A stretch of 64,000 bases of DNA, taken from NCBI GenBank assembly GCA_008632985.1, contig QPGO01000031.1:248001-312000 (forward strand). Reading direction: 5' to 3'. Source of the DNA: Psammoneis japonica. Lineage: Eukaryota. Both the position numbers and the translations under genes were made by a program. The notes below the pieces were generated by a model, which was not told the origin of the DNA, did no database searches, and worked only from the letters and a program-made list of their open reading frames with translations. This document shows positions 305 to 61,207 of the stretch, in pieces (the first letter of the stretch is position 1; each line of letters begins with the position of its first letter).

Positions 305-1660
305 ACTGAACAGGAACAACCAACCGATGAAGCACGTTTGACCGAGTCGTCCAGCGTGTGGGCGAAAGGTGCACGTCTCACAGTGGCGCGTTCGCGCGGG
401 GCCAATGAGTCGTGGATCGTGTTGACTGTTGCAATGACTTCACAGGGTGCATCTTGCTGGCAACCCAAGTCTGGCAGTTGCCCATTTTGTGGATTTCAGG
501 AATGGTGATGCATGATGGTCAACATTTTGACTGAATTTTGATGCTTTGGAACTGGAACAAGAACAACAAGAAGGAAGGCCACAATGTCCCAGACGCTGCA
601 GGGCAAAAGAGGAAAACCATCAGCGAGATGAGAGCAAAGCAAAAGGATCGAATGAGATCAGCTCACCCTGGGTTGGATGTTGACCTCATCTCCAACCAGG
701 ATGCATGGTGGTCATCAGCAGAAAACTTAAAATTTGACAAAAAGAAACAGACCCAAAGACAAAAGCAGCTGTTGTTTCAGTTTGGGCTGGGTGGTCTTTC
801 TCCTCCAGAACACCCCCCGCTTGACTTCTGTGGCTGCCAGCAAACTCTCCCAACAAGCAGGACTTGCCAACCAAATGCTCTTGGCTGGCAGAAGATTGAA
901 AATTGCTTTGGTTTGAACAGCCAAAGTCTGTGCAGGGTTGTGCACAGCATCTGCAGGGTGGCTGCTGCGCTGACGTCCTCGGTGTTCATGCGCAAAAGAT
1001 CCGGGCCTTTTTCATTGCTCTTCGAGGTCTCACATCTTTCTCTGATGACGCCATGCTCTCCATCACACAAATGGAGCAATGGTTGTTCGCAGTCATCTCA
1101 AAAAAAAGAAAAGCTTTGGTTTTTGCATGCAAGCTTCTTCCCATGGAGATTGGAGGGTGTGTTTGCTGGCTGTCTTCCAGGCTGTCACAGGATTTGAGGA
1201 GTCAAGCAGGTTGGAGCAGATGATGCACGAAACAACCAAACGCACACAAAGATGTTCTAACACCAGCACAGGTGCTGCCCAATTGTCTGCTGTTGTGTGG
1301 TTCATGGAGGTGCTGATTGGCTCAGACAGCAACAGGGAATCTCCCAGGTGACTCCCTCTCACTTTCCTCTCCACACACAAGAGTGAACTGCGTGCACACA
1401 TGGCACCCCTGCCACCACCCCGTGAGCACAGGTTGAAGAGATCTGGCTGGTTTGGAGCTGATCATGTCATGTGGTGTTTCTGTTTCATGTGTGTTTGTGT
1501 GTGTCACACGTTGCACTTAACTGCTGTTCACAACAAACCATCACAATGCACACCATGCGAATGCTGTGTGTCATCTCAATGTGAAAACAACCCGACACAC
1601 ACCCGAGACACTGACAAGATGGTCCTCCTGCTGCTTTCCCACAATCTGAAATCTGCTCAC
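305..1660. other. TpA-depleted hypermutated domain 1
   Basis: Almost no TA except YTAR (cttaaa, ttctaa, cttaac). TG/CA-rich. CpG is kept at the left edge (340-420) and reduced in the core. Confidence 0.8.
760..1260 (+). pseudogene. Decayed duplicate of the 3' half of the neighbouring ARF-like gene
   Basis: Colinear similarity to about 2200-2681 (ccaacaagcaggacttgccaa, ccaaatgctcttggc, caaagtct, ccatggagattgga), with indels and TA->TG/CA and CG->TG/CA changes. Confidence 0.85.
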
Positions 1661-5159: not shown

Positions 5160-6750
5160 TTCATCGATTGCCAATCAAAATTGCAATCAAAATTGCAATC
5201 ACCATTTCAAACGCGATTGCAATGACCTGATTGCCAGGGCATGGCTTTTGTAACAACCACACAATCAACTGCAGTTGTTTGAGCACTCTGAACTTGGGCT
5301 TTTTGTGAGAAGCTCTGAAAAAGCGCTTGTCTGCTCTCCAAATTTCTCACCTGTGTGGCGTGCCCAGCAGGCAGACGGGAACAGGGGAGATCCATTAATT
5401 TCTAGCATTCAAAACATGGTGGAGTCAACAAACAACTGGCAGCACACCAAGAGCTCTGGTTTCTTGCATGCTGGCTGTGTGCACGCTTCCCTGCTGTTGC
5501 GCTGGTGTGCTGTTGTGCTCTGGTGGTGTGCGCACATGCCGCTCTTCTGCATCACCAGAGATGGCTCCAAAAGTGTGGGCTGGCCTTCAAGACCAACACC
5601 TTCTACACTCAATTTAAGAAAGCCTTGCTGACATGGTGCAGAGTGGGTCCAGAAGCATTTTGGGGTCAATGAGGCTCTGTGTTGACCATTGGCCGGTCAT
5701 TTTCTGCCTCATTTTTGAGGAGAAGAGGCAGGTGTGACGGTGTGCTGGACATCAGCTGCCATCAAAAATGTGCACTCTCACCAACCTCTTTGCACAACAT
5801 TGTTGTTTGTGTCACAGCAAAGATGAGCTTTGTGTTGAGGTGTCCTCAGAGGTGAGTTGTGTGGACAAGCAGTGCGCAACACTCTGAGATGCTCGCTCGC
5901 ACACACCAAGAAGGTTCAGTTGGTGACAAAAAATGACCAAAGGAGAAGAGAGCCCAATTGTGGCTGTTGAGGCTCAAAAGACTTGGCTGGCATCAGCAGC
6001 ACTCAAGTCCAGAGAGCTGCTGCTCAGCTTGTTTGCTGCAGCCAGCTCTTGTTTCCGAGGTTCCAACTTTGGCCCATTTCACCCAAACCCAAGTGTGGCT
6101 GCTCCTGGCAATGAGACAGATGCATTTGGTGATGTTTTCCATGTTGTCATGCATGTTGTTGGACTGCTGAGTCCACTGCAATCCTTTCAAGAATGCTGGC
6201 AGCTTTGGCTCCACTCAAGGCCCTTGCAGCACTTGGACAAATTGCTCTCCCCAACTGTTCTCCATCACAGTTTTCTGCCTTCTTCAATGCAGCAGCAACA
6301 GCTTTTCTTTTTCAGCTTTTCTTTTTCACCCACTCACTCCTTTTGCTGTTCTCTTCTGGGCATCACCTCCAGCAGCAGTCAAAATGTGGTGAAGTCAGCA
6401 ACCACATCGCTGCTGTCTGGATTGCTGCACCAGTGGTGCTGTGTGTGCATCTGTTTGGGGGGCCCCAAGGTGTAGAGGACTGGCCTTTGGGACCAATGCA
6501 TTCTGCACTCAGTTTAGAGATTAATCCTAGAAGCTTTTGGGCAGCCAAGGCTGTTTCATTCCACCTCATCATCAAGGAGGCAGCTGTGATGGCTCTCCAT
6601 GGTTGTTGAAAATGTGCCCTCTCACCACCCAGCCACTGTCTATTGTGGATTGTTGCGCAACACATTTGCCTGCATTGTGTTGGATGCACTGATCTGGACT
6701 TGATTGTCAAGACGACTGGTGGGTTCTGACCGAGTTGTCGCGACATGGGA
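5160..6750. other. TpA-depleted hypermutated domain 2 (unidentified decayed repeat or gene)
   Basis: Remaining TA is mostly YTAR (ttaa, ctag, ttag, e.g. agtttagagattaatcctagaag at 6511). CpG is also rare. The ORFs are rich in C/H/Q/W and lack Tyr. Confidence 0.8.
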
Positions 6751-25939: not shown

Positions 25940-26179
25940 AAGACGTGCTCAAGTGTTGCTGGGGTTGGGAATGGATAAAGTTTTGGGATTGCGTAATAAC
26001 TCAGCGTCACTTAGCTTTGCGTTTTATCCCACACATTGTTTAAGCTAAGTTCACGGGAACTGTTGAATGATCTCCCCCTCTGTTGTGCCCCACCTCAATC
26101 CAGGGACGAAGCCTGTCTTCCGCAACCTCTCTCCATTTTCAATTTTCGACCCACAAATTCCATGCTATAGGGTGATTAC

Positions 26180-27278: not shown

Positions 27279-27526
27279 TTAACAAGGGGAACACAGTCTT
27301 GAAGCTTGGGCTGACGGACAGACGAAATAGAAATGCGGACGTCGTCAGTCCCGCCTACGATTAGTCCCGAATGCCAAAACTGCACAGACGCGAGATTCGA
27401 GATTCGAGATTCGAGATTTGCATTCCGATCGCACCATGACCGTCACCGTGACAGCTCTCGAAGCGTCGGAAATTCAGCGCAACACCACAGCCGCATTTCT
27501 TTGATTTCTTAAATCGAAATCCAGGC

Positions 27527-39421: not shown

Positions 39422-39479
39422 TGTTGACTCTTCTTTCGCAGCGACGGCGCTGAAGATTGCCTCTGCAAAATAGCAATGA

Positions 39480-40800
39480 GAGGAGGGGAGAAGCGAAGAT
39501 CGGCAGCAACAACAAGCGGTTGGCGAGTGCGACAAAAAGACGAAAAATCGAAAAAATCAAAATCAAAATGACCGGAAAAAGCGCGGGAAGACCTTTTGAC
39601 GGACGTCGGACGGTCAGTCAGTGCCATTCGCGCGCGGCGCGCACAAAAAATGTTCGTGGCATCAGAGTCAGGTTTGCCAAATGCATGGTGAGGGGTGGGA
39701 GTCGACCTCATCTTGAGTGGGCGCGAATCATGGAAAATTTTAGTGAGTGGAGGAGAGTGCATCGGAAGGGTGTGCAGAAGATGTGGGGGTGCGTGGGAGG
39801 GGCCACATCACAATGTCACAAGAATTTGGCAAATGGCGGGTGTCATGACTCAGAGATGACATCAAGGGGGCTCAGGTCATCAGGGGAGCACGCAAGCGAA
39901 GAAAGAGGAAGTTTGAATTTTTGTCACATTTTGCAAAAAATGAGAAGTCACAAGGAGTGTATTTTTGTGAGCGAGATCTGGCTCGAAACACGTGTGTGCC
40001 TTGCTTGCACACGAGCATGCCACCCAACATGATGAGAGCTTTCGGGATGATCGCACTGAGAGCCTGCCACAAGCCAGAGGTGGGGTGCAACAAAAAATGA
40101 CAATGAGGAAGCCCGGATTGTGCTTTTCCCTTTTTGCATGTGGCAAGACCTGCAAACTCTGCTGCAATTCACATGCTCCAGCCCTTGGCCAGTTTCTTGG
40201 CCTTGTGTCCGGACTCACCCGGGGATTGTCAACAGCCACCACACATGATCCATTCCCAAACCTTCCACCCAAATTGCGTTGTGGCCTTCCCCTTCTGTCA
40301 GAAAGACACATTTGGCCTTGGTTGGCAAGTTGAGATCTGTCACCATCACTTTCAAAAAGTTCTTTGGCTGACACCACAAGCGCGCTTCTCCTCAGCAACG
40401 TGCTCACCAGAGCATCTCTCGTCACCCCATTTGCTCATGAGACAACAAGTGACAGGGGAAGAGCCCATCTGACTGCTGATGGGAGAGGAGGAGCCACCAC
40501 TCAGGAATCTGTGCAGCAGACCAACGGAGACTTCATTGTCAAGACAGCTGGTGATCACAATTGTTGCGATGCAATGGTTGCTTCATTCTTGGCATTTCGT
40601 GACAAGGTCTGACAAACAAATGATTCAAAAAGTGAGCTGGCCAGCAGCTGGATGGAGGGATGAGTGAGAGGAGTTTCACTGGCAGTTGCATCTTGCCTGC
40701 GTCACCCACCATTGTGTGGTGGGTGGCCTTCCTTCGCGGTCCCCGTTGACTCTCTTCTCCCCAAACACCACCAGCTGGCACTGTGGGCAGTGCTGGCAAG
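39480..40800. other. TpA-depleted hypermutated domain 4, directly upstream of UGGT
   Basis: Essentially TA-free (exceptions ttag at 39740 and gtat at 39960). The left edge is CpG-rich. Confidence 0.75.
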
Positions 40801-41071
40801 AGCTTTGTTATCGTTTGAAGCAAGGCTGTGAGTGCAGGTAGCCAGCTGGACCCACTTTGCATGTTTCACCTCAATGCCGTGGCCTGCATCATGCCTCCAA
40901 ACCAAAGGAACCTTCTTCCACCACCTGCTTTCGACAAAGATCTACTTGAAAGTGCTGCCGCATGGATTTTCTTTGCAGGAACTGCTCGCAGTGCAAAGCT
41001 GTAGAGTCAAGATGGGGTTGTCGTTACGGACTTCGCCGACTCATGCAACCCTCGTGCTCGCCGCGTCCAAG

Positions 41072-42599: not shown

Positions 42600-43774
42600 T
42601 TAGTTCTTCTTGTTTTGGTTGTCCTCCTCTCTTTGAGTTTGTTCATCGAGAATTTCCTTTAGCAACTCTGCCGTGGGAAGCAAACTTTTCACTCGGCTCG
42701 AAACAAACGGCATTTTGTCTGGCTCCTGACCAGCCAGGGAGCTCGCACCTGCACACACAATGGCAGACAAGGACGCAAAGAACAAGATGTTGCTGGCATT
42801 TGCCACGACATCCACGGGCATCTGCTGACCCATCAACTGTGAGGCTCCGGAGACGAGCAGCGAAATGACACCGGGAATAAAGAGAGCAATGTCGAGGTAA
42901 ATGGCTTGGAGCATGTTGAATCGAACAAGCCGGTTGATGCGGGGAGAACACCCGACAAGAAAGTCAGTGACAAGGCGGCAATGAACCCACTCAGCGGAAT
43001 GGAGCGGCACACAAAATACGTCGCCACAATCAATTGTGTGATTGGATTGTTTGGATTGTTCAACACCAGAAAACTGGCGCAGGGAAGTGCACCAAGGAGA
43101 GGAAACATGCAGGGCAGCACTGACAAAACCTTGTCCAAGTTGGTGGGAGGCTTGTGTTCAAAATGTCAGCAATCTTGTTGCATGCTTCCTGTTCCCATTT
43201 AGCATTCGCTTGCAGTTCAAGGGATTGCTTCTTTTCCTCATGGGCAAATTCTGCCAGCACCGTCTTGAACCGTTCAACTCCGACAAATTCTTCCAATTGC
43301 AACTTGCCGTCACCAGATGCGTCAAATTTTTGCATCAATTGTTCAACGCGATCCTGGGGCAAGTCGGTCTTGAGTTGCCATTCGAGTCCGGCCTTGAGTT
43401 CCAATGGGGAAATTTTCCCGTCATTGTCGTGATCAAACTCAGCAAACACCCGTTCGGCCGCTTCCGCAGCCTCCTGGGAACGTTCTGCCTCCAGCGCGGC
43501 AGCTTCGGCGCGGCATTTGGCAGCCATGGCGCGGAGGCGCTCCACATCCACGTCGCCAGCGTTTTTCTCCGCACCACTTGGATTCTTGTTGATGCCATCT
43601 TGGACCATTTCTTGGGTGGTGTCTTTGCCTCCTAAAGCCCACAGTCGAGTTGATGGTTGGTTGGTGTACGAAATTGTTGGCAATTTCGCGTTTGAAAGAG
43701 GCTTGGGCGCGGCAAAGGCACTTGTCGAAACAAGCTGAGAGGTTGCAAAGAGAAAGAGAACAAGATTGCTTCAT
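42600..43774 (-). pseudogene. EF-hand plus Tic20-like plastid import protein, frameshifted, with Tyr->Cys changes
   Basis: Presequence ...VSTSA-FAAP, EF hands (DHDNDGKISPLE, DASGDGKLQLEE) and Tic20-like DKVLSVLPCMFPL...INRLVRFNMLQAIYLDIALF...GQEPDKMPFVS. At least 2-3 frame breaks. Confidence 0.85.
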
Positions 43775-44619
43775 CTAAAGAGCATTGTGTTGACCTGGGT
43801 GAAAAATCAAAAATTGTGAAAGGATTTTGAATCTTCGAGAACAGACGCTTTTTTCTGAAGAGTTCGAAAGAAATCTTGAGATTGTCCGCAGAGCCAGCGC
43901 TCTGCTGCCTGCTGACATGGATGCAAACACACCCATTCTTGCTTGTTGCATGTTTGTGGCTTCTGGACTTGCGCATGCATGGGGCGGGGCAGGCAGGATT
44001 CTTTGAACGAAGAGTTCGAAAGAACTTGCTGACGTGGATGCGAGTGCTTTCCTGCACGTCTGGATTTGTCTCTCGCAACATGGGAAACATCTGTGATTTG
44101 TGTGCAGAAAAGGCCTTCTTCATGGACAGGAGGCTGGAGAGCATCGCATTTGGCACAAAGCAAAACTTTTGTGTGCTGCATTTCTGTGCACATGAAGTTT
44201 CACATCTGACAACACTGAGGTGACAGTTGCACACCCCAGCTCGCTCAAATCCACAGAGGCCAGCGGCACTTTCGTGACAATGTGGCATGTGCCAGCATTG
44301 CCAGCACTTTCCCACCACAGCCACATCACATCACTTTTTCTTAAAGTGGCAATGTGCTGGATGAGCTTTGATGGAAAATGCAAGAAAATAGAGAGTGGCC
44401 TGACTGGCTTGATCTGCACAGGAGTTTTGTTCTCTGCTTGCGCTTGAGGTGCGCCACGGCAGCTCGAAAACAACATCAACAACAATGGCAATGTTGGCAC
44501 TGGGAAAACTTGGGTGCAAAGCAGCCACATTGATGGCATTTCCAGAGCTCTGCTGCTTGTGACAGAAAAAATGTGTTGAAGCACACATGAGGCAGAGCTG
44601 AGAGTGTGGCGGCTGCAGG

Positions 44620-45230
44620 ATGATGGCGGCGCACTGGTGGCTGGCTGGAGCTGCCCAGTGAAAACTTGTTCTGGTGGCTTTGTTTCTGTGAGTGTGAGAG
44701 TGGCCTGTGCCATGCAGTTAAAACACCCATGGTGCATGGCAGTTGGAGCCTTTTTGCCACTGGTGCTCATGGTGTTTTTGGAGCCTTGTTGCTGCACCTG
44801 AGATTGCAGCAGTTGGAGCGCTGGTGCTGCTGCTGCCAGCAGTGATGGGGTTGGAGCCTTTGTGCTGCTGATCCTTGCACTGGCAGCAGTTCTCAATGCC
44901 TTTGTGCTGCCAGCACCAATGGCAGTTGAAGCTTTTTTGCTGGTGGTGGTGGGGTGTTGGAGGTGGTGGTGGCGGTGGTGGCAGCTGGAGCCTTTGCACT
45001 GCTGGCACCAGTGCTGGTGGCAGCAATCAGCAACTCTTTGCACCACTCTGGAGCTGGTGGTGGTTGGAGCCTTTGTGCTGCTGGAAAGCTGGTGTGTGGT
45101 GGCTGGAACCTCTTTGCAATGCAGGTGGCATCAGAGCCTTTGTGCTGCTTGCGCACTTGTGGCAGTTGGAGCCTTCTTTCTTAAGCTGTTGATCAGTTGG
45201 AGCCCCCATGCTGCTGGTGCGGGCACTGGC
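44620..45230 (-). repeat. Degenerate tandem repeat encoding (S/T)STKAPT(A/T)-type mucin-like units
   Basis: Many copies of g(c/g)(a/t)g(t/c)tggagcctttgtgctgctgg on the + strand. The minus strand reads STKAPT-like units. Confidence 0.65.
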
Positions 45231-46504
45231 ACAATGTGATGTGCTCAAGGACCCTGATGGTGCCTGAGTGAATCAGAACTTGCATCTTAACCACCACAGC
45301 CACCTTGTCATTTTAGAGCTCTTCTCAAGTTGTTCAAAAAAGTCAACAAACTCACTTGACTTGTGAAACCAGAGAGCTGGGCGCACAACAGTTCCCTGTT
45401 CTTTGTTGTCATGATGATGAAGTGTGCAAACAGTGATTTTGAACAAGCTGCTTGCCACTTGGTTGCTGCCACAATCAACTTGCCTTAACATTGCTGACTT
45501 TGACAGAAAAAATGCACAAGCAAAGTTGTCTCTCTCATCTGTGATGCAGCCACTCAAGGCTTGAGAATCTTCAAAACCAGAGAGGCAAGTCACCTGCTTC
45601 TGCTGACTTTTTGGAAAACCTTGCCATTGTTTTTCAAACCTCAAGTGTGCTGAATTCTTTGGCTGTCTTTTTGACAATCATCTCACTGAGACTCTCAAGC
45701 CAAAGAAGTTTGACAGCTTGACAACTGCCCATGCCAGTGCTGCCTCTGCAATGATCTCTTCACTTCTCTCTTTTGGTTAAAGACTGAATGTTGTTTGCCA
45801 TTGTCAAGTGATGAGAGTGGTCTGGCATGATCCCAAGAAACATGTCACCTCCTCTTTTGTTGCCAGCATGACTTGCATGTTTCAATTGTGGTGGCCCTCA
45901 TTCCATGACCAAAGGTGTGCCAAGCATGTTGTCAAAGAGGCTCTTGTGTGCACAATGACAGAACAACAACAAACAGCAATTGCAGCGTCAGCACTGAGGA
46001 CCACATTTGCCATCATTCACAAGACCCCACAAGCACTGGCATGCTGTGGCCAAAGCAGCTGGTGGTGCTCAAATTGCTCAAGCTCTTTCACCTGCCTCAG
46101 CTCTTGCACCAGCTTCAACTAAAATTTCTGAGCACAAACTTGGACTTTTGCTGCTTTCAACCTGGGCTCCAAGCTCACATTGTGAGGCATGCCATCACAC
46201 ACATGAGCATCACTTGGAGACTGCTGCCATGTCAAGCACAACAGCCCATGAAGACATCCACCTCAATCCTTTCTTCACACAAGAACTTGGTGTTGTGAGT
46301 GTTGTGTGCCAGTGCTGGACCTCACTTCCATTGCTTGCTGAACTAGATTGTCACAAGAAATGGCACTTGAAACAATGCAGATGGAACTCAGCAAATCAAG
46401 ATGTTGAGCCAAACCTCCAAAACCCCAGAAGATTGGGCTTTTGCTTGCATTGATGCCAAACAAAGAAAAGAAAAAGAGGTGTGTGTGGCCCAATCAAGCA
46501 TTGG

Positions 46505-46768
46505 TTGCTGCACCCACACACCTTCAGGGATGTGTGACATGTTGCATGGCATGCCTTGGACAACTTTGTCAATTCTCTTGATCTGCTTTAGAGACCATTT
46601 TTGTTCTGGTGGGAGAAGTGAGTTCATCACCATTTTTTGTTGCTGCACCTGCACACCCTCAGAGATTTGTGACATGTTGCACCACATGTCTTGGATAATT
46701 TTGTCCATTCTGTTGATCCACTTTAGAGACAATTCTTGTTCCAATGAAAAAAGTGAGTTCATCACCAC
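46505..46768. repeat. 135-bp tandem duplication (45-codon repeat on the minus strand)
   Basis: ttgctgcacc...aagtgagttcatcacca at about 46505-46633 and 46640-46768. Confidence 0.85.
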
Positions 46769-49009
46769 TGGGTTTGCTCCTGATGATTCCATGGCATGTG
46801 TGAGCACAAGGAACTTGATCACAAATCAACCCTGGATGATGTGTGACACACAGTTTGAAACTCTTTTTTAGACAAAATTGTGAAATGCATCATCAATGTG
46901 CTTGGTCATCTGAGGTGCTGCATGCTTGTGACAAGAAACACCCACACTTTCCGCGCACACTGGTTTCCAAATGGTCTGACTGCAGCCATTGTTTCAAGTC
47001 ATTGTGGAAGAGCTGCTGCTGTGTCAAGAGCTGCTGCCATTCATGCATTTGTGCCAGAGGATCCATTGTGGCTTCTTGCTGGTGTGCCACCAAAGCTGAC
47101 AAAGACATCAGATGACCTTCAACATCTTGAAAGCAAACAATGTCAAGCACTTTCATCCAGTTGCCAATTGATGTGCCTGTGGCAATCAGCACTGGTGCCT
47201 CATCCTTGCTTGCTCCAGCACATTGCAGTGACTTTGCTGGTCCTCTGGAACCTGCTGAATTGACCATGACAACTGTCATTGGCTCATCACAGATGAAACA
47301 TGTTTGTTGGTGCATTTCATGCACCAACAAGGTTGTGTGCCAGAGTGAGATTTCATTGCCTGGTGCTTGCTGGAAGAACACCATCTGTTCCATCCAAACC
47401 AAGGCTGTGCACCTGGTGGTTCTGTTTGCCTGTTCAGCCATCTGCAGGCCCATTTTGATGACAATGACAGCCAGATGGCACCAAGTGCTTGGCATGTGGC
47501 AACAAAGCCACCCCTGCTCTCAACTGAAAATGCACTTAAGTTTCCACATAAAAAAGCAACTTGCTGCTCATGTCACATTTGTGCCAAAGCTTGTTTGCAC
47601 TGCAAAATGCCTTGGTGTGTCCCCTTCTTGTTTGTCACTTCTCAGACCAGTCAAAACCTTGCACCAGGTCAGAAGAAGAAGGTTTTGCTGCTTTGTCAGA
47701 AGCTTGGGCACACCAATTTTCAACACACATCTGTTGGCTCTGTCACACATGCCTTGAGATCCCACCAAGTCTTGTTTCCTCTCAAACCCCAAACAGCAGC
47801 TGTGGTTGGTTGCACAGCATGCCTTTGAGCGCTGCACAATGACTTTTTAAGACAAGGTGCTGTTCTCCCAGCTGTTGCAGCAGTTCTAAACTGCTGCCAC
47901 CAACCACAGACAGAGATTTGGCATGCCCAGTCAGTGTGCCTCAGTTGGTCAGTGCATCATCAGCCACATCCCCAGCCATCTTTTGCCAACAAGCAAGGGA
48001 CAAAAACTCAAGAAGAAAGAGAGCAGTGGCAGCACAATTTTTGTTGGCCATGCTTCCAACTGTGTGTTCCTGACCTGTCAAGAGTTGGTCTCACCACAGA
48101 AAAAGCCAATTGTGCTGGGCACACTTTTGAGCAACAACTCAGTGACTGGCTTGGCATGTGCTGTGTGAGTCAAGACATGTCAAGTTGACAAAATGCCCCT
48201 TTTTCTGAAGCTTTTGTGCAAAATCAAGAAGACAAAAGACTTCTTTGGTGTTGGTGCCCATCACCCAAATGGCACTGCAAAGCAAGCAACTTAAAGTGTC
48301 ACTTCCTGCTGAGCACAAGTCAGTGTGCCAGCACTGCACACTGTCCTCATGCAGCCAAGACTGTGCAAATTTGGGAATGCCCCTTTTTTGTGACCTGTGC
48401 AGTCCATCTTTGGAGTCACCCACCAAAAGCTTCAAACCATGGCAGTCAAGATCTTTTCACAGCTGTGCACACCTCTGTGCAGCACCCGCACACATGGGAT
48501 CAACCTGCCTGTGTTTTGGCAGATCCCAAACTGCACCACAACAGGAGAAACCCAACAAACAGGATTCCAAGAAAGCTGCTGTGGCAAGCAAGTGGCTGCC
48601 CTGGCATGCCCCTCTCTCATTCCACCACTGTTGGTCTTGTTCCAAATTTGGCAGGTTCCACATGGCTGGTCCATGACAGCCATTTCACAGCAGCAGCCAC
48701 TCAACAGCAAATCTGATGTTTTTAAAACATTTCAAAAACAGACACCTTTTCTGCCAACATTTGGGAAATTCTGTCAGCCACTGATTCAGCAGCAAAAACC
48801 ATGCTCTTGACTCCCAGCCCTCTAAAGACCCATGCTGCTGCTGTCCTTGGATGATGCCCAAAGAATGCTGCCACACCACACAATGACCCCCCACACCAGG
48901 GGGGGCATCCACAGCACCACCACCTGCAGCACACGACCATCACCAGGAATGATGCCTGGGTCACCTCTTCTGCCACAGCTTCTGCACCAATTCTGTTTGT
49001 TCCTTTGAG

Positions 49010-49025
49010 TGAGACAGAGAGAGAG

Positions 49026-49061
<36 letters not shown>
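49010..49061. repeat. Compound (GA)n(CAG)n microsatellite
   Basis: Read directly from the sequence. Confidence 0.9.
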
Positions 49062-49062
<1 letters not shown>

Positions 49063-51211
49063 AAATCCAAAATGCTCTGTTGAGTTAGAGAAGCACACTG
49101 TGATCAGGCAACGGTCATTTGTTCTCATTGCATTGCAGCAGGAAAGCATTGCTGAAGCACTCAGATCAAAGAACTCATGCACAACCAGCATGAATGTCTT
49201 CCACAAACATGCAAAGTGAAAACACAGCACACTCAAAGAGGTGCACTGACTGGCCTTTGCAGTTCCTGGAGCCAGTTCTGCAAAGTCAATCCAACCTGGC
49301 AGGAAAGTGCAATCAGAGTGGCCCTGTTTGCTTGGCACATGCCAAGCCTGTCACATCGAAAAATGTCCCCTTCCTTGTCAATGGCAAAGATGCTCAGGAG
49401 GAAGCAGGCTTTTTAATGTTGGATGAGTGGTGCGTGCTTCCCGCTTGCTTGTGCATCTCCAAGTGCAACCCGCACCTTGCGTGCTGCACCAAATTCTGGC
49501 ACTTTTCACAAAGCAAGCTCAATCACATCACTGCTTTTTTGAATCCTCCCATTGACAAGGAGGATCCCAAATGGGGTGCAGGGATGCCCAAAGAGAGGAG
49601 CACAAATGCTCTCTGGTGCACATTCACAATGCTGTGAGGAGCTGCTCTAAACCTGCCAAAGAGCCAAAAACTCATGAAGACTGTGTGTGGTCTCAAAGAA
49701 GAACCCAACAGTTTTTTGTCCACCTGAAGTCAAAGTCAGAAGAGGATGCTGAAATCCACTCTCAAGAAGACGATGCTGGTCTGTGCCTCTTTGTCTGGTG
49801 ACAAAGTGGTCTGCTTGGTGCACATCAATGAGAAACACACTTTTTTGGCCAGGGAAGGGTGCATCAAAAAGGAGGTGATCAAAAAACTCAAATTGACAAA
49901 GGTTTGTCATTTGCTGAAGCAAATGATTCTGTTGCAGGTTTTTTGGGCACTGCACATTGAGGTTTTGCAACACCAATGGTGCAATCATGCTGCGCCAGAG
50001 CAGTCTGGCTGATTGTGCTGTGCAGATGCTTTCAAGGCAGGCAACTTGTCAAAGGTGGCCTGAACATCTGCACAAGCTGCTCTTTTGGTCAAAGATGAAA
50101 AGGGAGATCCCCCTTGATTAAAGCCTTCAACAACGTCAATGTGTTTTTGGCACATGTGATGTGTTCTGGGATCTCCAAGGTCACACCTCCTCTCCAGGCC
50201 CAAGCATGTCACCTGTGCAGTCAGCTCAGGAGCAGCCAGAGTTGTGCACAGTCTGCTTCAGTCAACACCTCAAGGGTGCCCTCAATGAAGGTTTGATCCT
50301 CTTAAAGACATCAGGAGAGACTTCAATGTGTGTTTGTGTTTTCTTCTTGAGCTCAAATGTTGCTGGATTGTGGCTGGTTTAAGACAAGCAAGACCTGACC
50401 TGTGTAAAAAGCCATGCAGGGTTTGAAATCTGCACTTTAAACTGTCCTGTCATTTGTTCAAGCAAGCTTGCACCTGACACAGCCTTGTCCACCATGATGG
50501 AAGCACAGAGTGCAGTGTGCTTGTGCACCACTCTCATTTCCGCTTGTTGCATGAAAGCTGCTCTCCCCCTTCACAAAAAACACACAAGCCATTTTGCAAG
50601 GTGTTTGAATTGGTCTGGGTGTCCCTGAGGCCATCAAAACCATGGCATGGGATGACAATGTTGGATCTTTGTCCCTGGCCAACGTGGGACCTGGTCAAAT
50701 CACGATGGGGTCATCCAAGCACTTAGAACATCAAGCACCACAAGATTTGTGTTGTTCGCTGCTGAAACCAAATGGAGTTGTTGCATCTAAGATTACAACA
50801 GACATGCAGTGCACCATCATTTTCACCGAGGGACTCGGGATTGTCAAGTTCGAGTCCATTCGCAAGTTGCTTTGCGGCATTGCTGGCTTCTTCGTTCGAG
50901 AGGCAGTGTCGCAACAACATCACGCCATTACCAGCATGCGTTTGAAGTTTCGCGCCTTCGCACTTGAAGCCTTCTTTTGCGCTTCTGCTCTCTATCTCAT
51001 CACCTAGCATGTAATCAACATTAGCAGCAACTACAAGTGTCTATCAACACTGTCTATTGTCACTGACTCTATTGTTAGTGATGCTGTTTCGTATATTCGA
51101 CCGACAGTCGAATCTCATCGCTCTCAGCCGACAGTCATCGCAACAGGTGGCCGCTTTAAAACATTTCATATCGTTTCTGGCTGATAGTTGTGGCATGAAC
51201 GAACGAAACAT

Positions 51212-52156: not shown

Positions 52157-52798
52157 GCTGGACCATCACTGGGCATCCAACAGTGTGGACGGTGCTCCCG
52201 CAGGCGGCGGTCGGCGGTGGGCGAAATTTCAGGACGGGTTGGCGCGCATCAGCAGTTATGAGGCTACGACTAGCACAATGTGCAAAATAGACTATTACAA
52301 ACTGAATACTTTGTATTTAAATATATAGTAAATGTCTGAATGATTGGTATGTAAAATGACTGCACATGACTCCTGCTGTAGAATTTGTACCAGTCTACGT
52401 ATTTATTGCTCTACAAACTGAAGCCCTATAGAAATGTCTGGTGTTAAGTAAATTCAAATGTCGGAGCCGCCAAAATGGACCGAAACGCCGGCCACGTCTT
52501 TTAATAAAACATGCGATCTTGGTTATTGATTATGAAGCAGTCGGAGTTGAAACAGTAATATCAAAATTAATTTGAGTCTTAATTTGAATAGGAAACATTT
52601 AAAAAATCTTCTAATTGTGTTACAAATATCGATTTTTGACTACAAATTGTATGGGTTACATCTGTAAAAATGCCCTAATTATTTGCTAAAAGCCGTTATC
52701 GTTAAATATCGATGTACAAAAAATGCGATACGGGTGTTCAGGACGTTTTTTACAGTTCACATTGTGCTAGTCGTAACTCCATAGCCCCACTCCCAGCG

Positions 52799-53437: not shown

Positions 53438-54035
53438 ACATTTTGCCCGAGTGGGGCCAGCAATCCGGCATCGATCGCACCGAGTCGGTCCTCTCCGTTG
53501 TGTGTTGTGTGAGCCAATCAGAGATGATGGTCATCCGTCGGCGCTTTTTCAATGACATTCTCATGGTTGTGACAACCTCACCCAGAGGTTTCTGGTTGGT
53601 CCACTGTGACCATGGTGGCTTTTTGCCATTGTCCACACTGCAGATCTTCAGTGAAGGTGCACTGGACAGCTCGGGTTCAAAGTCCCCACTTGTTTCCCTT
53701 CTCTGCAGCTTCTTGTGAGGGCCTGAGGGCCTGCTTGTCATGGTGCCAGCATGGCTGTCAACACATGACAACATGCATTGGACCAGTGTCATTGCCCTGG
53801 CTGTGCTCAGCCAGTTGTGTTGCTGTCCTCAATGCCTTGTGTGTGTGAGAGAGAGAGGTCTCTTGAAAAAAAAAAAAAAAACCACGATGTCATTGTCAGG
53901 CACAACAGACAATGGCCAAACTCTTCAGTGTGGAGAGACAAAGCTGCACAGCACATCTGAGAACAGAGGCAAGAGTGCAGTGGGTGGCAAGCTCATTTTT
54001 GTTGCAAGAAACACACAAAGCCCAAGGAGGTGCAA

Positions 54036-54280
54036 TGACAGAAAATGAAGATGACTGGGTGGAAGAAAACAACAACTCCTTGCTGCTGTCTAAACAGCAG
54101 ATGAGTCTCCGTGCAGAGACCATTGCAGGAGCCGAAAGACTGGTGTCGTGATGTCGGTGCTGCTGTTGTTGTTCTTGGGAGCCGAGTGGCTTGAAAGCAA
54201 ACTGCATCGCGTGACGCGCACGGAACCAAGAGCACACACAATTGTGTGTGACAAACTAAAATCTTGTTCAAATCCTGTCA
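54036..54280 (-). repeat. 3' LTR
   Basis: Direct repeat of 58577-58821, preceded on the minus strand by a purine tract at 54281-54286. Confidence 0.95.
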
Positions 54281-54282
54281 CT

Positions 54283-57200
54283 CCCCAGTTTGCTTGAGGG
54301 GTCAACAGTGACAGATTCAAAGTCAGATTGGTTGAAAGCCTTGGGATCGAAGCTCCAAAACATTAGAGGATGAAGGAGGTTCCAGATTTGGGAGTGACCC
54401 CAATGCTTGCTGAGGATGTCAGCCGGGTTGAGGGAGCCTTCGACAAAATGAAACTCAAGGAAACCGGAGGCAATCGCCTCATGCACATGATGGAATGAGA
54501 GGGTGGTGTGTCGCTTGTGTGACTTGGAGTGTGGGATGGCAGCACTGTCCACAACCGACTTGTTGTTTTCCAGGAAGATCATCATTCGCAGGCCACGGAG
54601 AGACACTGCTCCGGAATGGACACTGTCGACGGGCACGTCTGTGAGGTGTCCATTGGCAACAAGCCTTGCTTTGTGCCGTCCGTCATGTTTGACGTCACAG
54701 ATGAGATGCACCTGGATCTTCTTGTGTCCTGATGGAGCGCTGGAATCGTTGTGGTGTCCGCAGTCGTGGAAGACCTCGCACTCATCAAGCTGAGTCATCT
54801 CGAGGTCCGTTGCATCTCCCCACTTGCGGTTGCCATTGCGCTCATCAAGGGCCATGGCATGCCTGCAGTCCCGCAGCACTTCATGCTCGCACTTGCATCA
54901 TGGCGCAGTGCAAAAGGAGTGACTTGTCTTGGTTGGCCATGCGGAGCAGCCTCTTCTGACAAAGGGCCATCTTGCAAAAGCGTCTCCATCCTTTGGTTTC
55001 TAGAAGGCCGTGCTCACACGGGCAGACAGCACAGGTGACGGGGTCATCCTTGGCAATGATGGCAAGGGGTTCGGATGCAATCTCCCCACTCTCCCATTCA
55101 AGCATGACGTTGTAGCTATCATGGGGTTGCAATGGTCCTTCGTGCGATGCGATGCATCGGAACTTCCAAAGGGTGGTGTCCTCATCTTCTTGCTCAATGT
55201 GGTGCATGATGTCATTGTAGGCTGGGACTTCAGAAGAAGCCATCTTGCAAAAGCATCTCCATCCTTTGGTTTCTAGAAGGCCGTGCTCACGGGCACAGAC
55301 AGCACAGGTGACGGGGTCATCCTTGGCAATGATGGCAAGGGGTTCGGACGTGATCTCCCCATTCTCCCATTCGAGCATGACGTTGCAGCTTGAGTCTTTC
55401 CAAGAGGGATCATGGGGTCACAATGGTCCTTCGTGGAACTTCCAGAGGGTGGTGTCCTCGTCTTCTTGCTTGATGTGGTGCATGATGTCATTGTGGGCCA
55501 GGACTTCCTCGTGTTCGTCATTGTTGATGGAGCAAATGAACTTGGCCAGTTCAGGATTGTCTCCGATTTTCCAGTTGTGGTCCTCAACGACTTTGACAAT
55601 GCGGGCTCTGTGGCGTTGTCCATCCTCTTGTGGCTTCATGAGGAAGGTGCATCCTGTGACATCCTCAGGGTCAAAGACCGGCATTTTGGGCATCCTGATC
55701 GCCTCCCCATCTGGTGAATCTGGCAAATCCTTGGAGTCGTGGCGGGATTTAATGACAGGTTCAGCAGATTTCTTGACAGGAGGATCAAGATGCAGGTTTG
55801 GAGCAGACGGATCATGGGCGGAGCGCACGTTGGAATGGCAGAGAATCTTCTGAGTGTCGTCAGAAAGAATCTTGAACGTCATTTGGTGACCAACGTGCTT
55901 GGCGATGTGCGGGAGGCTGGCTTTGATGTCAATGGGAATGACGCATCCATCAACAGTGGTGACATGCTGTGGACCGTCAGGGACCTTGATGGACCGATCG
56001 TTGACATTGTGTTTGTGCCACTCGAGCTGGCCGCAAGAGTGCATCGTCTTCCCCTTTTCAGTGTGGGCGCACTGGTGAAGGATGGCAATGGCAGGGCCGC
56101 GTTGCGTGTGGATGACACCACCGGCAGTGACAATGGGAATGTCTGCCAGTTGATGATCATCAACACCTTGGACGTCAATGTCATTGGGCTTCGCGTCGGA
56201 GCGGACGGAAGGTGCAGATCCAGGTGGTTTCTCGCCAGAATGGGCAGAAGGAGGCCGTTCAGGTGCCAGGAGACATTGCAAGTCGCCGGGTGGCAGGGGC
56301 TTGTGCCTGGTGAGATGAGCCAGAATGGGGTTGGTGTCGGCTGCATCGGCTGCAGCATCGGATTGTGCGAAGGCTGATGCAAGATCGTGAGTGTTGGCGG
56401 ACAAGTTGACATCGCCATTGCTGCCAATGCGGAGGTCGTGCAGGTTGACCACCGTCAAGTCATGGCAGTTGCTGGTGTGGGCAGTGCGCGAGCCAAGAAT
56501 GATGACCTTGGTGGACTGGGGCAAGGTGTCCCAAATTCGCTGATGGTCCGGCCGGAATGTGACGCCATTGTTCCTTGGTGAGGGAATTGCCACGAGTTTG
56601 CACAGCATGAGCTTGGATGACGTCAACATCACTGTCAATGTCAAAGAATGCATTGTCATCAGGGTCGTCAGGGACCAGGTCATGTTCGTAGATGGCACGG
56701 TGCGGAGCGCGAGGAGCCGTCTTGGACTGTGCTGCAGCAGAAAGCAGAAGTCCACAGTGCTCTTCACAAGAGAGCCCCTTTCCATTCTGCGTGCGGAGCT
56801 GATCAGCTTGATTCTTTACCAAATGGAGTTCTTCGACAGGATGAATGGCGTTCTCAAGCATGACATGTTTCTGGCCAGCAGAGAAATGGCCCGCACCCGG
56901 GACAAGAGCTTCACACTTGCGGAGCTGGTCCTGCCAGTGAAGTGTGAAGGCATGGGTGGATCCCTTCCAGGTGCCATCACCAAGGCGAGCAGTGGTGAGG
57001 TGCGTGAGAAGGGTCGAGGACTCCAGGGATGCGTGAGTGGAAGTGAGGGCACACTTGGAAAGGTCGCGATGCACCGCTTGAGCATCAGAGGAGCTGACAT
57101 GTTGACAAACAAGCGCCTTGCCTTTGTCATTCTGCAAGATCCGTTCAAATGCAGCGAACATGCACTTCTGTTGTTCATCAAACAGGGCCTTGTCCTCAGC

Positions 57201-57764
57201 TGTGGAGGGCTTGTGCTTCGGATCAAGAATGAGTTCGACGTCCTGGGAGCGGGCCTGTGCAATGATGGAGGTGTGCCACGTGTGCCACTGTTTGTCTGAC
57301 TTGAGAGTCACGAAGGTGAGTGGGTCACGTTTGATGCCTCGTTTTAAGTCACATGCAGGGTCACATGGTTTGGGTGGCAAAGAGCCAGGGGTGGGAGCAG
57401 ATGGCGCTGCACCCATGGAGAGGGATGCTGCATGCTCAGGACTAAGACGACAGTCAGTGAACTCCTCGTGAGTGAACAATTGAGGGTTGTTGCTGACATC
57501 CACGCTGCCGCGCGCTTTTGCCGTGCACAGGCCAATCAGCGCAGCCATCTGTGCTTTGTAACCACGTGACAAGGGCATCTGATTGGTGCCATTGTTGCAC
57601 ACAAGGGCATCCAGTTGCGTTGGAGTAAAAGCAAAAAGGTCCTGACAAGAATCGGTTCCATCAATGTTGAGAGCGGAGTGCAATGGACTGTCTGTGGCTT
57701 GATTCAGAACAGTGCCTAGAACATGCTTGAGTCCATTGATTTGTTGTTGCCTGGTGAGAACCAT
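54283..57764 (-). pseudogene. Decayed gag-pol of the copia element
   Basis: Gag ORF 57764-56460, a partial protease region (IPIVTAGGVIHTQRGPAIAILHQ), the post-integrase region, and the RT N-terminus fused to the RNase H C-terminus. Frameshifts are present. Confidence 0.9.
54966..55507. repeat. Internal ~270-bp tandem duplication in pol
   Basis: 54966-55231 versus 55239-55507 (both encode NDIMHHI...EWE.GEI.SEPLAIIAKDDPVTCAVC). Confidence 0.9.
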
Positions 57765-58576
57765 GTTGCAACTGGGTGGATGTCGGAACTGGCTGGAGTC
57801 GGAGGGTGAGCTTGAAACAACTTGAAACTTGACTTGAGTCTTGACTTGATGTCTTGAACTATCTCAAGAGTCAGAAGCCACCGGGCTGTGATGTCCCATT
57901 CACAGTCAAGTGCCAAGCTTCCCATCTGGTCCACAGAGTTGTGCTGGCATGTCCAAACCCGCAGCTGGTGATGCTTTGGGTTGCCTGAGAGCAGAGTGAT
58001 GGGTTAAAAACCCCTGCTGACAAGCCAACCAGAGGTGGACAAGACCTCCGAACCATTCTTGTTTTATGTCAGTTGGATGACCTGATCAGGCCGGCCAAAT
58101 TTGGCACTGTGGAGGGATGAACAAATGTGGGAAATGCACCCTCGCCCCAATGCAGGCTGTGATCATGAACTGCTTCCTCTCACAGTTGTCCTCGTGGACC
58201 TTGTAGAACTGCTGAGGACCAGCAATCTGGTGCAGGCTACAAGGCGGCAGACTTGGCATGTGCAGAGCAGGGCCAGAGTCAGGGTTTACATTGTGTGCTT
58301 GTGGATGCAAGCGGATGGATTGGCAGGATCCACTGCAAGGAATCTGGAATCTTGGATGTCTGAGAATTTGGGAATTCCTGGCCAAACAAACATCCGTTGA
58401 ACAAACACATCCAATGATGGGAGTTGTTGGACAAATCCAAATGTGTGGATTTAATCCAGCATCCAGCAGTGAAGAAGGCAGACACATGCTTCCACCGCCA
58501 ACGGTGCGCATCGTTGAAAATTTCTCGATGATGATGATGAACGCTCAACGGACAACAAAGAGCAAGACTGTCAATC

Positions 58577-58821
58577 TGACAGAAAATGAAGATGACTGGG
58601 TGGAAGAAAACAATGACTCCTTGCTGCTGTCTAAATGGCAGATGAGTCTCCGTGCAGAGACCGTCACAGGAGCCGAAAGACTGGTGTTGTGACATCGGCA
58701 CTGCTGTTGTCATTCTTGTGAGCCGAGTGGCTCGAAAGCAAACTACATCGCGTGACGTGCATGGAACCAAGAGCACACACAATCATGTGTGATGAACTAA
58801 AATCTTGTTCAAATCCTGTCA
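58577..58821 (-). repeat. 5' LTR
   Basis: Direct repeat of 54036-54280, same length (245 bp). Confidence 0.95.
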
Positions 58822-61207
58822 TGCAAACACAGTTTCTTTTTTGCACACAAGCTCGCCAGCTGTTGCAGCCAAAGCGCATGCTTGTTGTGATTCATTGCAA
58901 CAACAGGTGCCAAGCTCAACCTGGAAGCCATGGCACTTGCTGTGCACAAAGCACTGACAAGCAAGTGAAAGCTCCGCTAATTTCAAGCATTGCCGCCAGT
59001 GACAACAGTGCACATTCTTGCAACAAAAATGCACAGACCGGGTTCCACAACTTTTGCAAAAAGTGTTTGATCTTGCAAGCAAACACAACTGTCCTTTGAT
59101 GTTGCCATTTTTGTCAGACAAAATGGCTTTCAAGCTGAAAAAAAGATTGACATGAAGCTTTTGCTGACCAAACATCCACACCATGAAGTGCTCATGAACA
59201 ACCACATGTTTTTTTGGCAGAATCACATCAAGCCTGTCTCTTGGAGGTGGAGGTTAAAGAGATGCCTTGAAAGGCATGGCATCATGGCTTTCCTCAGGAC
59301 CATGGCATTGCTGGACTTTGCTCTTCATGACACTCCATGTGAGAGCATTTTTTCACAATTAAAGAGAGCTGTGTTCAAGCCTTGGCAGCCAAAGTGGTTG
59401 AGGCAACATCAAAGCAAATCTGGCACACTTGTGAGTTTGACATTTTGTTCAAATCAACCTTCTGGCATTCCCACTCAAAGCAGCCACTGTTCACAAGCTC
59501 AAACGGAGCCAAAGCCAGCAGCAATCTGATTTGAAGTGCAGCATGCATCATGGCCAAAAATTTGTGCCAACACCACAGTGTTGATTTTGCAGAGTGCAAT
59601 CACAAATTTTTATTTTCCTGTGATGAGAAATGGCTTTTGTTCACACCAGCTAACACAAGATTTGCTCTGCATTGGCTCATCCCAGGGAATTGTTTTTGTT
59701 GAGTTTTTTGTCATTTGCACAGTCAGTGCCTTGGCATGTGACACATGGGCTCTTCCAACTCACCCTCATTTTGTGACCACCAAGCTGGAGACTGTGTTAA
59801 AACCAAAGCATGACAGCAGCCTTTGTTGTTTTTGTTGTTGGTGCAGTGACTTCTCTTGTCCAGCCACCGGCCACCACCTGTGCTGCTTGTTTTTGTCATG
59901 TTTTCCATGAGGGGGCTGTGCTTTGTGCAGCAACTCATGAAGCTTTTGAAGAGTTTGAGTGGTTGATGACACAGACCAGTAAATTGCTCATCACCGTTGC
60001 AGAGTGCAATGATTCAGAGAGCTTCAAGAAGGATGAAGGCTGCAAAAAGAGCTCTGTTCCCTTGGTGGAGTGTTGCACTTGCCTCTCTAAACAACTGTTG
60101 TCATTTGCCTCTCCCCTCCAGAGCACCAATTTTGTTGCTGGCACAATGCCAAGAAAACCCACCTGGTGCCAGAGTTAATCTTGGGGGCACATTAGATGCT
60201 GACTTTGTTGCATCCAAATTGACAGGTGCAGCAATTGCCCACATGGACTCTCCCAACAGCACAGTCATCTGCAACAAACCTGGGCAGTTTGCTGCTTCTG
60301 TTCAACAATCAATTTGTGTGGAAGTTTTCTGCAGAACAAGATGTGATTCACTGGTGTGTGCAGGCCTTGGAAGAAGTCTTTATGCTTGCTCTGTGAGGTG
60401 TGGCATTGATGTGAAACAAAAATGTGACAGCAAGAGTGGGCCAGCATTGTGTGCCCATTTTGATGTGATGCCCAGTCCCTTGATTTTGAGGCAAAGATTG
60501 ACACCCAAAGACCAACGATGCACCAAATGCTGCATGTGTGGCAGTTGCAAGTGGAACAACAAGGAACTGTTGCAAGTGCAACAAAGCTCTTGCAGTCCAC
60601 AAGAAGACATGGCCAAAGATCCATTGCAACACAATGCTGTTCAGTTTGAGCATGTGGAATGTGTTGCTGCGAGAGTTTGTGTTGCAGAAACTCACATCTC
60701 ATCTTGGGTGAAGAGGAGGCAAAGTTCATTTGGAAAGGCTTCTGTGGCATTTGTTCTGGCAAGAGGCAAGGGCCCCACGTTAACTTGGTGCTGTGTTTTC
60801 TAGCACCACCTGTTTCTGCTTTACGGTTTCGGTGCGGGGTCTCTTACGAGTCCTGAAGGCGAGGGCGTGCGATGCACAGGATGAGGCTGCGAAAACGAAA
60901 AGGTCGATACGATTGTCGCGAAATTGAAGAAACGTCAACAGATGCGAGTTGATCGAGCCAAGGTCAGAATGGCTGAGAGCACGCTGGAATCATTAAAAGC
61001 GCTTCACCAAAAGGCTGACATGATTGTGGAGCATCTGCAACTTGAAACTCCCGACTCTTCCACATTGGAGCATTAGCACCCATCATTTTGCGAGGTTTAT
61101 CTGAGTTTTCATATGGTAGTCAGCTTACTCTTATGCCAGTCGAGAGCCCCGGCATGCATGCCTGTTTTTGCAGTTATCATAGCGCATTTCATAATCTGCA
61201 TGGTATA

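Follow-up and report, generated by a model that had tools for sequence, protein, structure and literature searches.

Probable post-insertion hypermutation of TpA to TpG and CpA in a copia-like retrotransposon and other repeat-derived islands of Psammoneis japonica

Why should the two long terminal repeats (LTRs) of a single retrotransposon insertion differ, at site after site, by the exchange of CA for TG and by almost nothing else? The question is raised by an element at positions 54036-58821 of a 64,000-nucleotide stretch of Psammoneis japonica DNA (GenBank assembly GCA_008632985.1, contig QPGO01000031.1, positions 248,001 to 312,000 of the forward strand; this whole stretch is hereafter the window). 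The coding strand of the element is the minus strand and, to judge from its sequence, the element is most likely a young, CoDi-like Ty1/copia LTR retrotransposon whose host is a diatom or a close relative of diatoms. An earlier note on the same DNA had proposed that palindromic pyrimidine-purine (YpR) dinucleotides, ancestrally TA or CG, were changed independently in each LTR on opposite strands. The evidence below supports that proposal, with TA as the greater source, and makes it probable that the element and other repeat-derived islands of the window underwent a strand-symmetric, DNA-level hypermutation of TpA to TpG or CpA after insertion, which we read as a genome defence resembling repeat-induced point mutation (RIP), of opposite chemistry.

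The LTRs are the single 245-nt direct repeat pair in the window (54036-54280 and 58577-58821, 91% identity), within whose 64 kb no further copy of the element or of the LTR was found. Compared base by base, they are unlike at 23 bases, which make up 15 sites: eight double swaps between CA and TG, five sites with CG in one copy and TG or CA in the other, one with TG against TA, and one transversion. This agrees with the count first put forward, as does the intact target-site duplication (TSD). The TAs common to both LTRs number two, each of them CTAA. Among the 119 LTR positions that lie outside any YpR dinucleotide in either copy there is not a single difference. When 23 random transitions were put on the LTR in each of 20,000 simulation runs, swaps arose 0.42 times on average and four times at most, against the eight observed, and the bases involved in YpR-to-YpR changes averaged 11.6 and never exceeded 20, where the LTRs show 22 of 23. 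The internal tandem duplication at 54966..55507 has a mutation spectrum like that of the LTR pair, its copies differing by four CA/TG swaps, five CG versus TG/CA sites, two TA versus TG/CA sites, two transversions and three other transitions, whereas the arms of an inverted repeat at 26780-27282, in normal DNA and unrelated to the element, lack the swap pattern. Because the Kimura two-parameter distance (K2P) between the LTRs is 0.10 over all sites, as opposed to 0/119 outside YpR, dating by LTR divergence is inflated at least four-fold for this element, an overestimate of age that had been foreseen.

The original state of the changed dinucleotides can be read from the protein alignment, in which conservation in at least three homologues was required and 379 columns qualified. 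At the 18 conserved Tyr columns the element has Cys (TGY) nine times, His (CAY) six times, Tyr twice and Phe once, so that 15 of 18 ancestral Tyr codons are now TGY or CAY: TA was the ancestral dinucleotide, and both of its strands were changed. Other conserved residues are mostly kept; at the 22 Arg columns Arg remains in 11, with His in four, Cys in four and Gln, Leu and Ala in one each, and the replacement of conserved Arg by His, Cys or Gln shows that CpG decay is present too. As a control, 19 related environmental loci with normal TA content provided 295 Tyr columns, which read Tyr 238, Phe 27, Leu 14, Cys 3 and His 2 times (Fisher P 8e-19 for the element against this control). The amino acid composition of the element's open reading frames (ORFs) points the same way, with 0-1.1% Tyr and 4.5-10% His, as against 1.8-4.4% Tyr in 20 homologues. 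On the sense strand CA occurs 542 times and TG 415 times, counts that are uninterpretable without the ancestral sequence, and an argument from this asymmetry was dropped.

We compared the window copy with other family members by aligning the contigs of a public read run to the locus at 80% likeness or more, a comparison that the earlier note had called for in order to infer ancestral bases and that could be made at internal sites only. It yielded 8201 family pieces, with a summed word depth of up to ~170,000 on the LTRs against 64.5 on the single-copy flank contig; the copia family is thus very abundant, although a summed depth is not a copy number. Transitions account for 843 of 952 variable places among the family copies. 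The states of the copies are available for 40 of 961 variable places, all internal and none in an LTR. Among these places, copies split between CA and TG at 54444/5, 54634/5 and 55494/5, three swap sites at which the surplus intermediate is TA (by +2, +8 and +3 contigs) and not CG; at 55078/9 TG stands in nine of nine contigs and CA in the window copy; and at 54482, 54488, 54654, 54835 and 55598 the window copy has TG or CA but the majority of the family copies CG. The roughly 50:50 split of CA and TG over hundreds of copies argues that each copy was changed on its own after a burst of transposition. From two further public read runs, one with no family pieces and one with 21 short pieces, no conclusion was drawn.

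TA depletion extends beyond the element to islands with sharp bounds, at ~501-1500, 5301-6500, 39501-41000, 42601-50800 and 53501-60800. As ratios of observed to expected frequency (o/e), the element has TA 0.10, CG 0.58, CA 1.64 and TG 1.57; the pooled islands have TA 0.07, CG 0.33, CA 1.75 and TG 1.71; and the window background has TA 0.58, CG 0.94, CA 1.21 and TG 1.18. With the LTRs themselves also far below background (Table 1), the near-saturation that had been suggested is borne out. In the islands the loss of NTA and NCG trinucleotides (-34.6 and -32.8 per kb) is balanced by the gain of NCA and NTG (+33.8 and +33.7 per kb). The element was inserted into an older island, whose CG o/e is 0.00-0.16 as against 0.58 in the young element itself. 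TA has been lost and CG kept at 39501-40000 (Table 1) and at 43201-43600 (no TA, CG o/e ~1); further along the same island as the latter, beyond 44400, CG o/e is 0-0.2. Such stretches, with TA gone and CG intact, demonstrate that TA loss is faster than CpG decay and independent of it. With neutral divergence between the LTRs taken at its 95% upper bound, losses per base pair exceed it by a factor of at least ~50-70 for TA and at least ~19 for CpG. The changes appear to be restricted to repeat islands with a spill-over of 1-2 kb. Judging by composition alone, we infer that the other islands derive from transposons; a Pfam search on 84 island ORFs returned only an EF-hand and a sub-threshold TIC20 match.

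Is the pattern a property of this assembly, of the element family, or of the host? A protein-guided scan of metagenome contigs found 22 related loci, and at 19 of them TA o/e is 0.56-0.83. Four (L009, L018, L019 and L022) have a CG o/e of 0.09-0.14 yet a TA o/e of 0.57-0.63, and are natural controls: related copia elements in other hosts that have undergone CpG decay only. The three low-TA loci are L021 (0.07), L012 (0.31) and L017 (0.42), and in these conserved Tyr columns are read as Cys or His in 6/10, 8/18 and 8/17 cases, respectively. As two copies of a single family, L017 and L021 are 86% identical, and their alignment of 1102 bases contains 19 CA/TG swaps, 25 CG versus TG/CA sites, 33 other transitions and 13 transversions; at 18 sites L017 has TA where L021 has TG (13) or CA (5), and the reverse never occurs. 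Three close control pairs (98-99% identical) show zero or one swap, and in two pairs ~28% diverged, mostly by transversions, there are 12 and 7 swaps, a background level for pairs so far apart. The signature is therefore real in independent assemblies and belongs to some hosts, not to most and not to the element family as such. A direct inversion of the dinucleotide CA to TG was also entertained, and was set aside because TA intermediates are seen both among the family copies and between L017 and L021.

The TAs that survive do so in particular contexts. Across 19 kb of islands (501-1500, 5301-6500, 39501-41000, 42801-50800 and 53501-60800) there are 89 of them, among which TTAA occurs 27 times, CTAA/TTAG 26 times, ATAC/GTAT twice, GTAC once and ATAT never (chi-square P 2e-27). 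The sparing of CTAA that had been pointed out in the LTRs therefore holds and can be extended to TTAA, the two classes together accounting for 53 of the 89. Measured against background density, the surviving fraction is 0.65, 0.44 and 0.13 for the YTAR sites TTAA, CTAA and CTAG (Y, pyrimidine; R, purine), 0.03-0.09 for mixed contexts (CTAC/GTAG, GTAA/TTAC, ATAA/TTAT and ATAG/CTAT), and, among RTAY sites, 0 for ATAT and ~0.02 for both ATAC and GTAC. Such values are those of a site with two halves that act independently, in each of which a purine 5' of the T promotes change and a 5' T protects. The affected metagenome loci L012, L017 and L021, taken together against the controls, rank the contexts broadly as the window islands do, with RTAY most depleted and YTAR among the least (density ratios ATAT 0.02, GTAC 0.15 and ATAC 0.16, against CTAG 0.71, TTAA 0.51 and CTAA 0.41; P 1e-5). 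At the polarised L017-to-L021 sites, four of five CA outcomes have a 5' purine and 12 of 13 TG outcomes a 5' pyrimidine (Fisher P 0.008); a 3' A leads to CA at five of eight sites, and a 3' base other than A to TG at ten of ten (P 0.007). Flanking bases, in other words, influence the change.

On the mechanism that we propose, each T:A pair of a TpA would be changed on its own, by an A:T to G:C transition at a palindromic step, and the pair whose T has a 5' purine (5'-RTA-3', which is 5'-TAY-3' on the other strand) would be changed most readily. RTAY sites would then be lost first, and YTAR sites (TTAA, CTAA/TTAG and CTAG) last. Copies changed independently would bring an ancestral TA to TG in one LTR and to CA in the other about half the time, and it is this independent change in each copy that would yield the CA/TG swaps. 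A further and slower process, the change of C to T at CpG, would account for the sites with CG against TG or CA, and would most simply be deamination of 5-methylcytosine (5mC) in methylated repeats. The whole may be an enzyme-driven genome defence of the RIP type, acting in bursts that, speculatively, could fall at the rare sexual cycle of diatoms. For the chemistry itself there are two candidates at 5'-TA-3': the adenine could be deaminated, or the thymine could be modified and then mispair. We put forward as a tentative proposal, somewhat short of an even chance, that a dedicated enzyme system rewrites A:T pairs at TpA (RTA/TAY) in silenced repeats, a natural DNA adenine or thymine base editor serving as defence and a mirror of RIP, perhaps in bursts at the sexual cycle and in only some diatom lineages.

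Among the other explanations, the one that fares best is an artefact of sequencing or assembly, in which modified bases at TA and CG were miscalled or polishing mixed the states of different copies. It draws on the facts that the read run accounts for no more than 0.62 of the words sampled from the stretch, that no contig listed spans the LTR swap sites, that the library type of the read runs is not on record, and that the frameshifts in a host-derived gene within one of the islands (see below) could be indel errors. We regard it as very unlikely nonetheless: the contigs of the read run, with a word depth of ~60 and lengths of up to 315 kb, required accurate reads; at one and the same site, copies with CA and copies with TG are each seen in dozens of contigs; the signature recurs in three metagenome contigs that belong to other assemblies; and polishing toward the family majority would have made the LTRs more alike.

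Gene conversion is very unlikely. By this account the LTRs were not mutated independently in place and instead received their differences from other, already mutated copies, of which a very abundant family, with CA and TG states both in circulation, would offer a supply. Conversion would import other polymorphisms as well, and several internal transversions stand at 5-95% of depth; the LTRs differ by one transversion only and by nothing at the 119 sites outside YpR. It would, in any case, still require the same TpA mutagenesis in the donor copies.

CpG decay alone, with every swap site once CG and deaminated on opposite strands in the two LTRs, was the outcome by which the original proposal could have failed, and we now hold it to be highly improbable. 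CpG decay is certainly at work, as the five LTR sites with CG against TG or CA, the reduced CG of the element and the nine Arg columns read as His, Cys or Gln all attest; most family copies retain CG at the five internal sites named above where the window copy has TG or CA, and diatom relatives with CpG-only decay exist. A one-rate CpG-only model of the LTR pair, however, expects 3.7 sites with no change, 11.7 with one copy changed and 4.7 swaps, against 7, 5 and 8 observed (P 0.002). With CpG decay rates estimated independently, at 0.26-0.45 per copy, 0.45-1.5 CG-derived swaps are expected, and the probability of eight or more is 3e-8 to 2e-4. Nor can CpG decay remove TA: it leaves unexplained the TA o/e of the element, the Tyr codons turned to TGY or CAY, the stretches in which TA is gone and CG intact, and the 18 polarised changes from TA to TG or CA between L017 and L021, and the relatives in which CpG alone has decayed keep their TA. 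The case for TA as the main source thus stands on the failure of the CpG-only model, on the Tyr codons and on the surplus of TA at three internal swap sites.

Editing before integration, whether A-to-I editing of RNA by an enzyme of the ADAR type or deamination of cDNA, would have been passed on to the new copy; retroelement editing of this kind, of ADAR or APOBEC type, is marked by strand bias. A change of A to G beside U or T resembles the preference of adenosine deaminases for a 5' neighbour, and the dominance of transitions among the family copies is compatible with it. One template serves both LTRs, however, so that the same changes would be expected in each, whereas they differ at 15 sites in an insertion whose TSD is intact; both strands were changed, as the nine Cys and six His at former Tyr codons and the swaps in both directions attest; and DNA outside retroelements (the host-derived gene copy and the older flanks) was changed too. 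Taken together, the two Tyr-codon outcomes, the swaps both ways and the unlike LTRs of one insertion exclude editing of RNA or cDNA, a possibility to which we give almost no credence, and they uphold the claim that the mutagenesis was chromosomal, double-stranded and later than insertion. Selection against TA, be it to avoid a nuclease specific for TA or UA or to remove stop codons, can be dismissed as barely conceivable, since even though scarce TAA and TAG keep long ORFs open, the changes destroy conserved Tyr residues and occur in non-coding LTRs and frameshifted DNA, unlike between the LTRs of one insertion.

Several points weigh against TpA hypermutation as we have presented it. Repetition is at most a possible trigger, and a host-derived gene copy was affected too. 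For the eight LTR swap sites the ancestral base is reached only indirectly, and about one of the eight may derive from CG; CpG sites with two very different decay rates could in principle produce extra swaps. The homologue panel may include the control loci's own proteins, which would inflate their retention of Tyr. Copy number rests on summed contig depth, and the states of the window copy are open to consensus polishing among hundreds of near-identical copies; the incomplete match of the read run to the stretch, already mentioned, counts here as well, and the sole long matching contig begins at 58796, just beyond the last swap site. Finally, the base at position -1 shows no significant relation to the His or Cys outcome at former Tyr codons (Cys 11 R and 9 Y, His 10 R and 7 Y).

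How does TpA hypermutation compare with known systems? RIP in fungi changes C:G to T:A, mostly CpA to TpA, so that it enriches TpA and depletes CpA and TpG; its timing is premeiotic, and it depends on a DNMT of the RID/DIM-2 type. The pattern in the window is like RIP of ascomycetes in acting on DNA, on both strands and on each copy independently, in approaching saturation, in leaving a dinucleotide signature, in leaking into adjacent DNA and in making LTR dating meaningless. It is unlike RIP in that the main change is A:T to G:C at TpA, with C to T only at CpG, and in that its host is a stramenopile and not a fungus. The RIP indices run in reverse, with TpA/ApT at 0.092 in the islands and 0.62 in the background, and (CpA+TpG)/(ApC+GpT) at 1.87 and 1.24; the thresholds for RIP, as given in one part of PMC7884421, are at least 0.89 for the former and at most 1.03 for the latter. 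As to confinement to repeats, the copia family is highly repeated, some of its copies carry CA and others TG, and the islands have sharp edges; the host-derived gene copy has also been changed. Deamination of 5mC in methylated transposons, which turns CG to TG or CA on both strands and can produce swaps, corresponds to the slower, second component here; it spares TpA, as in L009, L018, L019 and L022, whereas in the window TA loss is the faster and occurs also where CpG is intact.

Enzymes with a related preference act on RNA. The TadA and ADAT2-3 deaminases act on an A after U (U33-A34 of tRNA), and the A-to-I editing of mRNA in fungi favours a U at -1; in both cases the product is read as G. 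A DNA-directed, repeat-targeted member of either group would be hypothetical. Modification of thymine is known from dinoflagellates, another lineage of the SAR (stramenopiles, alveolates and Rhizaria) group, in which 5-hydroxymethyluracil (5hmU) occurs preferentially at TA and TC, is concentrated at repeats and keeps transposons silent, according to passages of PMC11572971; there it is an epigenetic mark, and those passages report no mutational outcome. In diatoms, DNMT4 groups with the RIP-associated protein RID, some members having chromodomains, and its function is given as unknown in the relevant part of PMC9998398. Being like a C5-methyltransferase, it would explain C-to-T change, that is, the CpG component only, and not the changes at TpA.

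The LTRs of diatom CoDi elements span 153-844 bp at 94-100% identity, as stated in passages of PMC2806351 that describe no such mutation pattern. The element shares with Ty1/copia CoDi elements its TG...CA LTRs, a 5-bp TSD and homologues with RVT_2 or an integrase-domain name; it differs from those described in being internally rearranged and in an LTR identity of 91% that stems from hypermutation and not from age. A Pfam search of its four long ORFs returned no family. One of these ORFs finds 20 relatives, of which two contain RVT_2 (PF07727) and one is, by name, an integrase-domain protein of the diatom Cylindrotheca closterium, and by blastx ~2 kb of the element aligns to those relatives. 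The segment 55417..54881 (minus strand) may be chromodomain-like, and the ORF at 54897..54268 (minus strand) presumably resembles the start of a reverse transcriptase or the end of an RNase H. A purine-rich GGGGAG adjoins the LTR that ends at 54280. The pattern of the LTR, searched for in metagenome contigs of the Joint Genome Institute (JGI), gave no matches.

Table 1. Positions of the element, its parts, its LTR differences and the depleted islands of the window
Feature	Position	Strand	Remarks
TSD TGCAA, left copy	54031..54035		
LTR, 3' in element orientation	54036..54280	minus	TG...CA ends; TA o/e 0.13, CG o/e 0.71
Internal region of the internally rearranged Ty1/copia (diatom CoDi-like) element	54281..58576	minus	
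Internal tandem duplication	54966..55507	minus	period ~273-276 nt
ORF with homologues bearing RVT_2 or an integrase-domain name	56815..55418	minus	
Gag-like ORF	57863..56460	minus	
LTR, 5' in element orientation	58577..58821	minus	TG...CA ends; TA o/e 0.18, CG o/e 0.67
TSD TGCAA, right copy	58822..58826		
LTR double swaps	LTR positions 38/39, 60/61, 89/90, 117/118, 123/124, 135/136, 208/209, 217/218		
LTR CG vs TG/CA sites	LTR positions 87, 112, 157, 182, 186		
LTR TG vs TA site	54204 G / 58745 A		context aacTGc / aacTAc
LTR transversion	54178/58719		G/T
Older TA/CG-depleted DNA, left flank of insertion	53501..54030		53501-54000: TA o/e 0.00, CG o/e 0.16
Older TA/CG-depleted DNA, right flank	58827..60800		59001-60500: TA o/e 0.05-0.11, CG o/e 0.00-0.12; 60501-61000: 0.19, 0.69
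Largest TA-free island in the window	42601..50800		TA o/e 0.00-0.15 over most
EF-hand and Tic20-like gene copy	42606..43764	minus	inside the TA-free island; closest homologue P0141
TA-free island	39501..41000		first 500 nt: TA o/e 0.07, CG o/e 1.07
TA- and CG-depleted island	5301..6500		
TA- and CG-depleted island	501..1500		

Stop codons reflect the composition of the element: TAA and TAG number 2.0 and 2.1 per kb, about four-fold fewer than in the background (8.5 and 8.8). Only TGA stops remain common in TA-poor DNA, both in the element and in all the islands, and 35 ORFs of at least 80 amino acids, in all six frames, overlap the 5.8 kb around the element. In the oldest island, a 135-nt tandem duplication at 46501-46767 (82% identity) has 24 differences between its copies, including three CA/TG swaps and six transversions; this repeat is older, and combines the signature with ordinary divergence.

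The host-derived gene copy that bears on confinement to repeats encodes EF-hand and Tic20-like sequence, spans three reading frames (two frameshifts, at 42.9-43.2 kb) and leaves no gap for introns. Where its closest homologue has Tyr, it has six Cys, two Tyr kept and no His, and its CpG is intact. It is a duplicate that is dead, or else a gene that lost its function through spill-over from neighbouring repeats. Whether the EF-hand ORFs at 43063-43770 and 51212-52165 are paralogues, which would make a duplicated gene the target, was considered and rejected upon comparison. Elsewhere the window holds long, nearly intron-free genes for UGGT, 6-phosphofructo-2-kinase, a bestrophin-like protein and EF-hand proteins. 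The named relatives of the UGGT are stramenopiles, other proteins match at ~80%, and an EF-hand and Tic20-like gene suits a plastid-bearing host. The UGGT gene (34446-39556, minus strand) is divided into adjacent ORFs in different frames (37175-39556 and 34446-37157), by an intron or a frameshift, and this split bears on whether the frameshifts of the Tic20-like gene are real or assembly indels.

Two further repeats lie in the remainder of the window. The inverted repeat at 26780-27282 has 198-nt arms, 95% complementary and 107 nt apart; it may be a small foldback element and adjoins a partly depleted stretch at 26001-26500 (TA o/e 0.21, CG o/e 0.39). At 23410-23579, inside a long ORF at 20910-23903 (plus strand), a 33-nt tandem repeat is present in four or more copies at 75-79% identity and would encode an 11-residue peptide repeat.

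No description of hypermutation of repeats from TA to CA or TG was found in the full-text literature, subscription-only literature being outside that search, and a term search of a preprint on diatom transposable elements (10.1101/2025.10.24.684338) returned no mention of related terms. The chemistry may well be of a categorically new kind. In genomes of this kind, dating by LTR divergence and Kimura "repeat landscapes" fail. The four-fold rarity of TAA and TAG leads to long spurious ORFs in all frames, which could mislead gene finders, and transposon proteins that have lost their Tyr escape profile searches, as seen in the want of a Pfam match for any ORF of the element. The implied enzyme, which would deaminate adenine or modify thymine in chromosomal DNA at RTA/TAY, has no described natural counterpart and would be of interest to base editing. 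To our knowledge, repeat-targeted hypermutation as genome defence is known only from fungi, and only as C to T; if the change of A:T to G:C at TpA in an alga is what it appears to be, this strategy would have evolved more than once, by different chemistry.

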